From an uncultured Mycoplasmatota bacterium (GTDB taxonomy: Bacteria > Bacillota_I > Bacilli_A > RF39 > UBA660): DNA of 64,000 bases. Positions within the stretch are counted from its first letter, which is position 1. Every line of letters begins with the position of its first letter. The notes beneath the pieces were generated by a model. The model did not search any database. It worked only from the letters and a program-made list of their open reading frames with translations, and was not told where the DNA came from. This document shows positions 47,619-51,639 of the stretch, one piece after another. The stretch is from NCBI GenBank assembly GCA_900548695.1, contig URLC01000002.1, forward strand, positions 197,545 to 261,544, in the 5' to 3' direction. The position numbers and the translations under genes are program-made.

Positions 47619-48968
47619 ATGAGAGAAAATAAAAAGTTAATATTTCAATATGTTTTTTTGTTTTTATTCTTTTTCTTTTCTTTAGTATTCTTTTTTAATG
47701 TAAGTAGAGGAGATACTTATGTTAATTTTGGCTTTAGTTATGCTATAGCTAGAGGAGAAGTGCCTTATCTTGATTTTAATATGGTAATTCCACCTTTCTC
47801 CCCTTGGTTTTATTCTATCTTTTTATTGTTTTCTAAATCTATTTTGGTTTATTATGCAGGACAAGCGTTGTTGTTAACCATTCTCTTTTCTTTTTTATTT
47901 AAATTGTTGGGAAAAAAAGCGTGGATTTATTTAACTTTAATTTTTATGCCTTTTCCAATTTCTATGAATACTATTTTGTTTCCAGGGTATAATTTTTTAC
48001 TTTTATTTTTATTAGTAATCGTTATTCATTGTGAGAAAGAAAGAAAGTCTGATTATTTGATAGGATTTTTATTAGGACTTTTATTTTTAACAAAACAAAC
48101 GGTAGGAGGATTGCTTTTTTTGGTATCTTTTTATTATTTATTCCAAGATTATAAAAAGGTATTAAAAAGAATCATTGGATTCTTGATTCCTACTATGTTT
48201 ACTTTTTTTGTTTTACTGATTGAAGGATGCTTTCAAGAATTTTTAGATTTATGTTTTTTGGGACTTTTTGATTTTGGTAATAGTAATTTTAATTTTGATT
48301 TGTTTTATTTAATAGTGTTTGTTTTGGGGCTTATTTTGGTGATTATTAGAATTGTAAAAAAGCCAAAGGATATTTCTAATTATTATGTTTTATTATTTGC
48401 AAGTTGTGTTTTTCCAATTATAGATTATTATCATGTATCACTTTTTTTAGGATTACTTTTTTTATTGATATTGTTAGATTTTCCTGATATCAAGCAAAGT
48501 ATTGCGGTTTATTGTGTTTTATTAGCGAGTACTTTTGCAGTTTTATGGTTTATATTTTCATTTTTAATTTTTAAGGATATTAAATTAGTAAATTATCATA
48601 ATTTTGAACTTAGTTTAGTGTCTAAAGACTATTACAATTCTGTTAAAAAGTTAGATCAATATTTAGAGTCGTTAGATAAGCCTATTATTTATCTTTTAAA
48701 GGGAAATGAAAATTACTTTTTTAAGATTAAGAGTAGTTTAGATATTACTTATTTTGATTTACCTAATTATGGTAATTATGGTTATCACGGTACTGATAAA
48801 TTAGTTCATAAGTTAAAAGAAATTAAAAATAGTTATATTGTAATTGATAGTAGTGTTTCTTATGATAAAAGTGTTTTTCAACAATATATTAAAGAGGCAG
48901 CACAATATGTTATTCAATATGGAAAGTTAGTAAAAAAAATTGGAGTGTATGCAGTATATGAAATATAA
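47619..48968 (+). CDS. polytopic membrane protein, paralog 1 of 3 (GT-C-like architecture, function unknown)
   Basis: About 10 TM helices. First loop GFSYAIARGEVPYLDFNMVIPPF, LTKQTVGG, C-terminal soluble domain with YGYHGTDKL. Confidence 0.6.
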   Translation: MRENKKLIFQYVFLFLFFFFSLVFFFNVSRGDTYVNFGFSYAIARGEVPYLDFNMVIPPFSPWFYSIFLLFSKSILVYYAGQALLLTILFSFLFKLLGKKAWIYLTLIFMPFPISMNTILFPGYNFLLLFLLVIVIHCEKERKSDYLIGFLLGLLFLTKQTVGGLLFLVSFYYLFQDYKKVLKRIIGFLIPTMFTFFVLLIEGCFQEFLDLCFLGLFDFGNSNFNFDLFYLIVFVLGLILVIIRIVKKPKDISNYYVLLFASCVFPIIDYYHVSLFLGLLFLLILLDFPDIKQSIAVYCVLLASTFAVLWFIFSFLIFKDIKLVNYHNFELSLVSKDYYNSVKKLDQYLESLDKPIIYLLKGNENYFFKIKSSLDITYFDLPNYGNYGYHGTDKLVHKLKEIKNSYIVIDSSVSYDKSVFQQYIKEAAQYVIQYGKLVKKIGVYAVYEI

Positions 48969-50304
48969 TATTTGGCAGAAGATTTTAAAGTATGGATTTG
49001 TTTTTTCCTTTTCCATGTTTGTTTTAGTTTTTTTTAGTGGTATTAACTCTTATGATTCTATTTGGAATTATAGTTTTAGTTATGCTATTGCGAAAGGACA
49101 AATTCCTTTTTTAGAGATTAATATGATTACACCTGGCTTTTATAATTTCTTAATGTCTTTAGGACTTTTAATTTCGCATAATAATATTATCTTTTTAATG
49201 GAGCAGGCATTACTTGTGACAGTGACATTTGCTTTTTTAAATAAATTATTTGGCGATAAGGCTTGGCTCTTTTTATTTTTCATGTCCTTTTCTAATTTTT
49301 TAGCATTTTGTCCAACTTATAATTATTTGTTATTGACTTTGACTATCCTTGTTATTTATTTGGAAGTTAATAAAAAGAGTGACTATCTTATTGGTGTTGT
49401 TTTAGGACTTTTAATTTTAACTAAACATACGGTGGGAATTATATTAGTGATACCTAGTATTATCATTTGTTTTAAAGATAAAAAAAGATTATGGCAGAGA
49501 TTTTTAGGAGTATTTATTCCTTGTAGCTTTTACCTTATTTTTTTAATTGTAACTGGGAGCTTTTTTAAATTTTTAGACCTTTGTTTTTTTGGACTTTTGG
49601 ATTTTGCTGGTAATAATACTGATTTTGTAGTTAGTTATTTTGTTTTGAGTTTAATTCTATTAGGTATTAGTATTTTTTATGTTATCAAATATCCTAAAGA
49701 TATCGTTGGATATTATGTATTAGCATTTTTTGCTGTTATGATTCCGATTTTTACAGCATATCACTTTCATGTTTATTTGGTCATGGTTTCTTTACTTCTT
49801 ATGCAAAGACTTTTCATATCTAGAAAAGGAGTAGTAGTACTTTCATTAGTTTTATGTTTTATTGTTATAGGATTTAATATTTTTATTAATTACTATGGAA
49901 AAAGTTATACTTTTTTAGGATATAATAATTTTAATTATTTATATTTGCCAAAAGTTTCCAAGGAGTATTTTGAAGATTTGAATCAGCTTTATCATAAATA
50001 TCAAAAGAAGGGGAAAGTTCAGATACTTTCTAGTAAGAATCCTTGGATAAAAATTACTAATGAAGAAAAGCTTAATAATTTCACAGTTTTTTTGAATGGT
50101 AATTTTGGCTATCATGGAACAGAAAAAATGATAAAGCAGATTAATAAGAATGGGCAATTTTATTATATTCTTGATAGAGTAGAGTATAATTGGAGTCAGG
50201 TAAAAGGGCAATTTCCCATTGATATTGTGGAGTATGTGGTAAAACACAGCCAATTAGTAGAAGAAAAAGAACCATATCAAATTTATTATTTTAGGAGGGG
50301 TTAA
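48940..50304 (+). CDS. polytopic membrane protein, paralog 2 of 3
   Basis: SFSYAIAKGQIPFLEINMITPGF, LTKHTVG, FGYHGTEKM. Same architecture as paralog 1. Confidence 0.6.
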   Translation: MECMQYMKYNIWQKILKYGFVFSFSMFVLVFFSGINSYDSIWNYSFSYAIAKGQIPFLEINMITPGFYNFLMSLGLLISHNNIIFLMEQALLVTVTFAFLNKLFGDKAWLFLFFMSFSNFLAFCPTYNYLLLTLTILVIYLEVNKKSDYLIGVVLGLLILTKHTVGIILVIPSIIICFKDKKRLWQRFLGVFIPCSFYLIFLIVTGSFFKFLDLCFFGLLDFAGNNTDFVVSYFVLSLILLGISIFYVIKYPKDIVGYYVLAFFAVMIPIFTAYHFHVYLVMVSLLLMQRLFISRKGVVVLSLVLCFIVIGFNIFINYYGKSYTFLGYNNFNYLYLPKVSKEYFEDLNQLYHKYQKKGKVQILSSKNPWIKITNEEKLNNFTVFLNGNFGYHGTEKMIKQINKNGQFYYILDRVEYNWSQVKGQFPIDIVEYVVKHSQLVEEKEPYQIYYFRRG

Positions 50305-51639
50305 ATGCATAAGTATCTTACTAAGAAAAATATATTTATAGCTTTATCTTTATTTTTTATATTTTTAATATGGAATTTAATTTTAGTACCAGTTAATTTG
50401 GATGAAATTTGGAATTATGGGTTTAGTCATAATATGTATTCAGGACTGGTTCCTTATAGAGATTTTAATATGATTATTACACCATTTTATAATTTTTTAA
50501 TGTCACTTGGATTTCATTTGTTTGGTTCTAGTATGTTAGTCTTTCACATTGAACAAGCGATATTATTAGTAATTCTTTGTTTTATGCTTTTTTATTTATT
50601 AAAAGATAAAGGTTGGCTTGTCATAGTGTTTTTTTTCTTTCCACTACCAGCTTCTTTTCCTAATTATAATTTTTTCTTATTCTTTTTGTTAGTTTTACTT
50701 TTTATATTAGAAAAAAAGAAATATAACGATTATTTAATAGGTTTTGTCGTAGGAGTTTTCATTTTAACAAAACAGTCTGTAGGTTTTATGATTTTTCTAG
50801 TTAGTTTAGTCTACTATATTAAAGATTTTAGGAAAGTTATAAAAAGGTGTTTCGGGGCTCTAATACCAATTTCTATTTTTGGTATTTACTTATTTTTTAC
50901 CAATAGTTTTTATCCTTTTTTAGATTTATGTTTCTTTGGTCTTTTTGATTTTGCTTCCAAAAATGGTCATGGTTTTACTGTTTATTTTTTCTTATTTTTG
51001 TTTTTAATTGGATTAACTATTTATTTTATTATAAAAGATAGAAAAAATATATATAATTATTATGCTTTGGCCTTTTATAGTATTTTAATTCCCTTGATGG
51101 ATTTTTATCATTTTCAGTTTGCTTTTTTAACGTTTTTAGTTCTATTTTTAATGCGAGTAAAAGGACTTTCTATGAAACCAGTATTATTTTCTTTAGGAGT
51201 TATTGTCGGGGTTTTCTTGGTATCTTTTTTTTATCGTTTTGATAAAAAGATAGTTTATCCTAATCAAGTTCATCATTTTGAATATCGACTATTAGATCAA
51301 AATAGTTTAGAAATTACAAGAAAAATGAATGAGTTTATTTTAAAACATAAAGATTCAGAAATTATATTTCTGAATTCCAATGCTTATTATTTTAGATTGA
51401 TTCATGATATGCCTATTAGTTATCTTGATTTAATTAATATGGGTAATTGGGGATATGATGGTAGTAATAAGCTTTTAAAAGAAATAAAAAAACATAAAGA
51501 TGCTTTCTTTATAGTAGATAAAAGTGAGTTATCACCAATTAAGCAAATTGATAAAAAAGTTATTCGTTATGTTATTAATCACGGTCAAAAAATAGATGAG
51601 GTTTTTATGTATGATATTTATACTTTGAATATTAAATAA
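50305..51639 (+). CDS. polytopic membrane protein, paralog 3 of 3
   Basis: GFSHNMYSGLVPYRDFNMIITPF, LTKQSVG, WGYDGSNKL. Same architecture as paralogs 1 and 2. Confidence 0.6.
   Translation: MHKYLTKKNIFIALSLFFIFLIWNLILVPVNLDEIWNYGFSHNMYSGLVPYRDFNMIITPFYNFLMSLGFHLFGSSMLVFHIEQAILLVILCFMLFYLLKDKGWLVIVFFFFPLPASFPNYNFFLFFLLVLLFILEKKKYNDYLIGFVVGVFILTKQSVGFMIFLVSLVYYIKDFRKVIKRCFGALIPISIFGIYLFFTNSFYPFLDLCFFGLFDFASKNGHGFTVYFFLFLFLIGLTIYFIIKDRKNIYNYYALAFYSILIPLMDFYHFQFAFLTFLVLFLMRVKGLSMKPVLFSLGVIVGVFLVSFFYRFDKKIVYPNQVHHFEYRLLDQNSLEITRKMNEFILKHKDSEIIFLNSNAYYFRLIHDMPISYLDLINMGNWGYDGSNKLLKEIKKHKDAFFIVDKSELSPIKQIDKKVIRYVINHGQKIDEVFMYDIYTLNIK

Follow-up and report, generated by a model that had tools for sequence, protein, structure and literature searches.

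What do uncultured gut bacteria of the order RF39 encode between the division genes divIB and ftsA? The question is raised by a stretch of 64,000 nucleotides (nt) from an uncultured Mycoplasmatota bacterium (contig URLC01000002.1, positions 197,545 to 261,544), referred to here as the window. In its division and cell wall (dcw) cluster three consecutive genes of one strand lie between divIB, recognized by its POTRA_1 domain, and the ftsA/ftsZ pair, as the first-pass annotation of this DNA had placed them. In Bacillus subtilis the divIB-ftsA slot holds ylxW-ylxX-sbp. The three products, called copies 1, 2 and 3, are probably GT-C enzymes that transfer sugars from a polyprenyl-phosphate carrier to make or modify a glycoconjugate of the envelope, and their genes are probably transcribed together with murG-murB-divIB. 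The data show the genes with their paralogy, fold, conserved residues, synteny and tract variation; for this proposal we infer the donor, the acceptor, the residue roles and the co-transcription.

The three copies can be aligned from end to end with pairwise identities of 36-39% and 91 invariant columns, which is far beyond chance. The shared motifs described in the first-pass annotation are found as quoted in the first outside loop and in the C-terminal domain, (Y/F/W)GY(H/D)G(T/S)xK, but the membrane-embedded LTKQ reads LTKH in copy 2.

Predicted fold and topology

The structure of copy 3 was modelled with AlphaFold2 on an alignment of 131 sequences, and the model has a predicted local distance difference test score (pLDDT) of 96.4 and a predicted template modelling score (pTM) of 0.94. 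It consists of a helical membrane domain extending to residue ~312 and an alpha/beta domain at residues 332-441. In a Foldseek comparison with the PDB, the best matches are the two ArnT structures 5f15 and 5ezm (E 1e-4, template modelling score 0.57-0.60, probability 1.0), followed in order by archaeal AglB, human STT3, PglB, ALG9, PIGU of the glycosylphosphatidylinositol (GPI) transamidase, Pmt1-Pmt2, PimE and GPI mannosyltransferase I. The 13 best matches are all GT-C enzymes or the GT-C-like PIGU, and the lower ones are noise. No structure of the SEDS type is present among the best 50. A GT-C fold of the GT-C_A-like type, closest to the ArnT/PglB/PimE subclass, is supported by this model. 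The GT-C-like character suggested earlier is thus borne out by structure prediction and fold search together, and the weak Pfam matches of the family point solely to the GT-C families PMT_2 and GT87. The absence of SEDS character, also noted earlier, holds in the best 50 fold matches and in the sequence comparisons.

The topology was derived from the model helices and from charge counts in 200 family copies from 73 species. It comprises 11 transmembrane (TM) helices, not the ten first proposed, with the N-terminus inside and the C-terminal domain outside the cell. As expected from the positive-inside rule, the inside loops of 4-8 residues contain 1.5-2.2 Lys+Arg each, while the outside loops contain almost none per residue. 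The C-terminal domain modelled alone reaches a pLDDT of 94; its best PDB match is the C-terminal domain of AglB-S, of the short archaeal oligosaccharyltransferases, with an E-value of 0.03 that is not significant.

Putative active site

Residues were counted in the same 200 copies and are numbered as in copy 3. The first outside loop (residues 28-76) forms two short juxtamembrane helices and contains the near-invariant residues D33, N37, F40, G47, P50, Y51, D53, F54 and N55. D33 is present in 196 of 200 copies, and D53 in 189 with Glu in another 8, across all paralogue clades. Two helices, residues 142-155 and 157-170, make a short TM5/TM6 hairpin, and its tip is the LTKQ motif with K156 (198/200). 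Further conserved residues of the outer side are Y121-N122, F216, P263 and H269, the last found in 199 of 200 copies. Both K156 and H269 are predicted in the outer half of the membrane. The outside domain, of ~130 residues, has the invariant sequence G380-N381-x-G383 (200/200).

PimE uses as its catalytic base an Asp located at the tip of JM1, the first juxtamembrane helix, and binds the leaving phosphate through a Lys and a His; in ALG6, ArnT and PglB the corresponding Asp also has the catalytic role (PMC12041525). The Asp/Lys/His set of the present family appears to echo that of PimE, with the same order and the same predicted membrane side. The conserved acidic residue in the first extracytoplasmic loop, by which GT-C enzymes are recognized, is seen in the alignment, and either D33 or D53 is the candidate base. 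We propose that D33, at the start of the first outside helix, would serve as the catalytic base, that K156 and H269 would hold the leaving phosphate and that the outside domain with its G-N-x-G motif may help to bind the acceptor.

Sequence affinities

Curated family models reveal almost nothing about the window copies. Copies 1 and 2 have no Pfam match, and copy 3 matches PMT_2 (PF13231) with 16.3 bits (E 0.011), below the gathering score of 26.1 bits. For GT87 (PF09594), with a gathering score of 25 bits, none of the three copies gives a match at E<=1, and that score is not reached. The NCBIfam scan of the three proteins gave nothing. In particular, the window copies have no Pfam or NCBIfam match to SEDS proteins (FtsW/RodA/SpoVE) and no match to Wzy_C or O-antigen ligase, to DUF881-type proteins or to YfhO. 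The PDB was searched by sequence with two profiles, of 3 and 131 sequences, and with a paralogue that passes the GT87 test; no real match was returned, the one chance match being NleB at E 1.3.

Among 108 members of the wider family, at E<=0.1, the recurrent Pfam matches are solely to PMT_2 (21/108, best E 2e-5) and GT87 (19/108, best E 2.5e-7); one of the 108 has a chance-level match to EpsG (E 0.046). In one related species two of the five paralogues are just over the GT87 cut-off with 26.3 and 33.4 bits, and the others score 17.7-18. One orthologue carries the NCBI name 'glycosyltransferase family 39 protein'. These scores place the family on the fringe between GT87 and PMT_2; by the curated thresholds the window copies belong to neither. 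When 1.84 billion cluster representatives were searched with a profile, 1402 clusters matched at E<=1e-3, 406 of them at E<=1e-30, and nearly all of the best 150 clusters are 430-460 residues long.

The array in related species

Many gut metagenome contigs carry copies that are identical or nearly so. Among species-representative genomes, the relatives found are without exception metagenome-assembled genomes of uncultured 'Bacilli', 'Tenericutes' or 'Mycoplasmatota'; their sources are the guts of humans, rabbits, ruminants, mice and chickens. In one relative, Candidatus Faecimonas intestinavium (locus L027), MurG, MurB, DivIB, FtsA and FtsZ are 77-95% identical to those of the window. The genus Candidatus Faecimonas has been placed in the order RF39, family CAG-611 (PMC8035907), and the window is therefore assigned, by this relationship, to a probable RF39 bacterium.

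The window proteins were mapped onto 72 loci of different species, and both divIB and ftsA are visible in 57 of these. The order murG-murB-divIB-[family copies]-ftsA-ftsZ, on one strand, is found in all 57. The number of family copies in the slot is one in 7 loci, two in 13, three in 19, four in 9 and five in 9.

Distance clustering of the 200 copies gives at least eight clades common to several species. The clade of copy 3 is the largest with 60 members; it forms the core of the family, being represented in most species, includes most of the single-copy loci and usually adjoins ftsA. The clade of copy 1 (41 members) is usually first in the array, adjoining divIB, and that of copy 2 has 20 members. 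Because the copies fall in separate clades common to several species, the array is old and has been shaped by differential gain and loss, and a recent tandem triplication is rejected. The triplication described earlier as unusual proves to be an array of one to five ancient paralogues that extends over the whole lineage.

The copies diverge faster than their neighbours. In locus L006, for example, the identities to the window proteins are 93% for FtsZ, 85% for FtsA and 81% for MurG, compared with 62%, 38% and 63% for the three copies. Copies located outside the dcw cluster (L046, L056, L060, L071) have uninformative neighbours: a type II secretion system ATPase, RmuC, an ABC transporter and one diacylglycerol-kinase-like gene.

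The base composition of the three genes was also considered. Their G+C content is 23-25% (window 47500-51500), while the flanking dcw genes have 29-33%. This is more likely due to the composition of membrane proteins rich in Phe, Ile, Leu, Asn, Lys and Tyr than to recent transfer, since the synteny is conserved. A recently acquired island is rejected, despite the dip in G+C, by the synteny in 57 of 57 loci.

A variable homopolymer in copy 2

The cluster of copy 2 at 90% identity contains many half-length proteins. The gene has a run of seven T in the window (Table 1), while in a sister strain lineage (related loci L077-L083) the tract is T8 (L077-L081, the half-protein being found on nine contigs) or T9 (two contigs). 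Either length causes a frameshift that splits copy 2; copies 1 and 3 are intact there. The full-length copy 2 alleles among those listed are all of the window's lineage. The poly-T tract slips, because two out-of-frame lengths occur on otherwise identical flanks. The T8/T9 state could represent phase variation or recent pseudogenisation. In either case copy 2 is dispensable, and therefore an accessory decorating step fits better than an essential division function.

Gene arrangement and transcription

The features of the region are collected in Table 1. The three open reading frames (ORFs), of 449, 454 and 444 residues, were found exactly where the first-pass annotation had located them, with one adjustment. 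The ORF of copy 2 opens with TTG at 48940 (454 residues), but ATG 48958 (448 residues) is the better start, because GGAG lies 12 nt upstream and the public gene calls use the same start. A Shine-Dalgarno-like site precedes each of the three copies. In the window all three are intact and keep the key residues; the possibility that the paralogues are pseudogenes, named earlier as a result that would refute the proposal, is rejected for these copies.

Table 1. Positions of genes and sites around the divIB-ftsA slot, in window coordinates.
Feature	Position	Strand	Remarks
Promoter-like site upstream of murG	44826-44854		Consensus match only
murG	44934..46013	+	First gene of probable operon; Glyco_transf_28 N and C domains, E 3e-41 and 1e-35
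murB	46003..46923	+	Overlaps murG and divIB; MurB_C E 5.7e-36; FAD_binding_4 E 2.8e-24
divIB/ftsQ	46914..47615	+	Ends 3 nt before copy 1; POTRA_1 E 2.7e-13; FtsQ_DivIB_C weak
GT-C-like copy 1	47619..48968	+	449 residues; ORF; GGGAG Shine-Dalgarno site
GT-C-like copy 2	48958..50304	+	448 residues from ATG 48958; 11-nt overlap with copy 1
T7 homopolymer in copy 2	49584..49590	+	Codons Cys-Phe-Phe-Gly; T8 or T9 in sister strain lineage
GT-C-like copy 3	50305..51639	+	444 residues; copy modelled with AlphaFold2; first base directly after copy 2 stop
Promoter-like site TTTACA-17-TATAAT	51654..51682	+	11/12; in 68-nt gap before ftsA; best consensus match in region
ftsA + ftsZ	51708..54071	+	FtsA, SHS2_FTSA domains; Tubulin, FtsZ_C on public gene calls

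The genes murG, murB and divIB overlap one another upstream of the array, the following junctions are 3 nt (divIB-copy 1), -11 nt (copy 1-copy 2) and 0 nt (copy 2-copy 3), and ftsA/ftsZ follow after a gap of 68 nt. The stretch from murG through copy 3 contains no terminator-like site. The overlapping junctions, the lack of such a site and the positions of the promoter-like sites suggest one murG-murB-divIB-copy 1-2-3 transcript and a separate ftsAZ promoter. Promoter-like sites are no more numerous in the region than expected from shuffled sequence.

Other envelope genes in the same slot

A second polytopic family of ~470 residues, with no Pfam or NCBIfam match (e.g. L019:8949-10373), is found in 11 loci (L011, L019, L028, L041, L044, L045, L057, L058, L065, L069 and L070). 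In ten of them its gene follows the last family copy and precedes ftsA, and in L044 it is inside the array. Its homology to the main family is recognisable in the C-terminal domain only (hhalign 93.6%). In some species a third polytopic family and an FAD oxidoreductase of the PRK07208 type, flanked by polytopic proteins (L026:14685-16259; L069:13457-14998), are also located in the slot. A true PMT_2 GT-C protein is found there in L040 (2790-4295), and a CDP-alcohol phosphatidyltransferase together with a 614-residue sulfatase-domain protein of LtaS size in L036 (10710-13225). Because other envelope enzymes sometimes occupy the same slot, the divIB-ftsA gap in this lineage is regarded as a site where outward-facing envelope-glycoconjugate enzymes accumulate.

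Proposed function and alternatives

By analogy with ArnT and PimE, each copy would take a sugar from a polyprenyl-phosphate carrier at the outer face of the membrane and pass it, with inversion, to an envelope acceptor. Shared transcription with murG-murB-divIB would tie this glycosylation to wall synthesis and division, and the paralogue clades, one to five per species, probably differ in the sugar or linkage that each contributes to a single envelope glycoconjugate. Bacteria of the order RF39 are predicted to have peptidoglycan but not the standard wall- and lipoteichoic-acid pathways (PMC10868615), and mraY and murG were present in most RF39 genomes of an earlier survey (PMC7301438). Because these inventories are without standard teichoic pathways and the sequence affinity is to GT87, the leading candidate for the acceptor, as a conjecture, is a lipoglycan or a teichoic-acid-like polymer.

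Several points weigh against this assignment. The three window copies are below every curated family threshold and have no sequence match in the PDB. That D33, K156 and H269 correspond to the residues of ArnT and PimE is judged from their order and predicted membrane side rather than from superposed residues. The nature of the acceptor is wholly inferred, and co-transcription is deduced from gene spacing only. When all ORFs of the window and of 10 kb beyond each end were read, no GT2 polyprenyl-phosphate glycosyltransferase and no GtrA-type flippase was found, which is not evidence of their absence from the genome.

The alternative that survives best, although it is unlikely, is that the copies are protein O-glycosyltransferases of the PMT/GT39 kind acting on extracytoplasmic proteins, e.g. 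DivIB, which the genes adjoin, or penicillin-binding proteins. The weak PMT_2 matches, the GT39 in the NCBI name of one orthologue and the appearance of yeast Pmt1-Pmt2 in the fold search would be in accord with it. However, the PMT_2 matches are under the cut-off, PMT stands at rank 10 of the fold search with a template modelling score of 0.31, and MIR domains are absent. The arrays of up to five diverged paralogues, together with the LtaS-like enzyme and other GT-C-like proteins in the slot, fit stepwise glycan assembly better.

Slightly less probable still are polymerases, ligases or oligosaccharyltransferases (Wzy, WaaL or PglB-like) acting on undecaprenyl-diphosphate-linked oligosaccharides. 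AglB, STT3 and PglB are indeed among the best fold matches, the best, weak matches of the isolated C-terminal domain are to AglB-S (E 0.03), and a synthase of a monophosphate donor was not found nearby. Yet the domain match is not significant and the best full-length match is ArnT; a WWDYG-type motif is absent, Pfam gives neither a Wzy_C nor an O-antigen ligase match, and both families to which the sequences show affinity, GT87 and PMT_2, use monophosphate donors. That the copies are division or wall-polymerase components, SEDS-like or scaffolds, replacing ylxW-ylxX-sbp of Bacillus is highly improbable: the position in the core of the dcw cluster and the presence of at least one copy in every related locus seen would favour it, but no SEDS or DUF881 sequence match and no SEDS structure in the best 50 fold matches were found, the number of copies varies between 1 and 5, many strains have a frameshift in copy 2 and the GT-C-type Asp/Lys/His set is conserved.

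Transfer of sugars from polyprenyl-phosphate to an envelope glycoconjugate is the reading that we prefer. It can be extended, tentatively and with considerable doubt, to a species-variable lipoglycan or wall glycopolymer of RF39, a substitute for teichoic acid that the array of GT-C enzymes might build entirely at the outer face and that would be laid down with septal peptidoglycan, with accessory steps switched by slippage. If this were true, glycopolymer synthesis would be hard-wired into the murG-murB-divIB-array-ftsA-ftsZ operon.

Other features of the window

Directly after ftsZ, the window encodes a polytopic membrane protein of 488 residues (54148-55614; 485 in the public calls) with no family match. 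It has no relative in the 72 related loci, is absent from the species of L086 and looks like a species-specific insertion. Two genes at 40832-42513 (230 and 326 residues, no Pfam match) lie between pyruvate kinase and a 109-residue gene; they are present in L073 and L076 and absent in L074 and L075, which indicates a strain-variable insertion. Downstream of murE, the segment 58941-63669 contains a VanZ-like gene, a Polysacc_synt (MOP-type) flippase, a 233-residue sigma-70-family factor with regions 2 and 4 only, and a 505-residue polysaccharide deacetylase with a surface immunoglobulin-like domain. It is a further wall-related set, possibly holding the lipid-linked glycan flippase. The segment 10126-13461 is probably a mobile-element remnant: it encodes part of a serine recombinase, to which the public calls give Resolvase/Recombinase domains, followed by a 778-residue protein with no match.

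Novelty and significance

In the literature on GT-C proteins in dcw clusters, on the RF39 envelope and on GT87/DUF2029 outside actinobacteria, no description of this family or of its arrangement was found. The fold and the probable chemistry are already known. New are the family itself, for which there is no curated model, with its compact 11-TM architecture and its own outside domain; the conserved presence, throughout an uncultured order, of one to five ancient paralogues in the divIB-ftsA slot; and the possible homopolymer on/off switch.

RF39 is a widespread and essentially uncultured order of human and animal guts with small genomes, and its envelope is known from gene inventories only. 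A conserved, fast-evolving, outward-facing glycosyltransferase family, present in several copies in the operon of wall and division genes that is the most conserved of all, is the best current lead to the RF39 surface glycan that faces the host, phage and the immune system. It also provides a tangible example, open to testing, of a glycan whose synthesis is linked genetically to the divisome. Without a Pfam or NCBIfam model most copies are annotated as hypothetical, and a family model would correct this for more than 1000 protein clusters.

Comparison with known systems

The genes of B. subtilis occupy the same position in the dcw cluster, but the window genes show no homology to ylxW-ylxX-sbp and no DUF881-type match, and their products differ in fold and size. 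In the three-component glycosylation systems of Firmicutes, a GT2 enzyme (CsbB, GtrB), a GtrA-type flippase and a GT-C protein (YfhO) decorate teichoic acids and wall polysaccharides. Such systems are not known to be embedded between divIB and ftsA, the window copies do not match YfhO, and neither a partner GT2 enzyme nor a flippase was found close to the window genes. The features in common are an extracytoplasmic GT-C step, an envelope of the Gram-positive type, sets of paralogues that vary between strains, and on/off variation.

The best structural match of copy 3 is ArnT (CAZy GT83; PDB 5EZM/5F15), the undecaprenyl-phosphate-L-Ara4N:lipid A transferase. Both are polytopic and have the N-terminus inside; in both, the first outside loop bears juxtamembrane helices and an acidic residue, and the C-terminus forms an extracytoplasmic alpha/beta domain. 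However, the identity is only 11-12%, ArnT has 13 TM helices in place of 11, and the outside domain of the window family is smaller. The host of the window family is of the Gram-positive type, without lipid A, and the PMT_2 model is not passed.

By sequence the nearest family is PimE/MptC (GT87, PF09594), the mannosyltransferases that use polyprenyl-phosphate-mannose to make actinobacterial lipoglycans. In structure PimE is matched only weakly (E 0.31, template modelling score 0.36); it has 12 TM helices and is without the C-terminal globular domain of the window family, and the phylum and genomic context also differ. The Asp of the first outside loop, the membrane Lys and the later His conserved in the window family nevertheless resemble D58, K195 and H322 of PimE (PMC12041525). 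A further likeness to PimE/MptC is the occurrence of several paralogues, which in actinobacteria build one lipoglycan.

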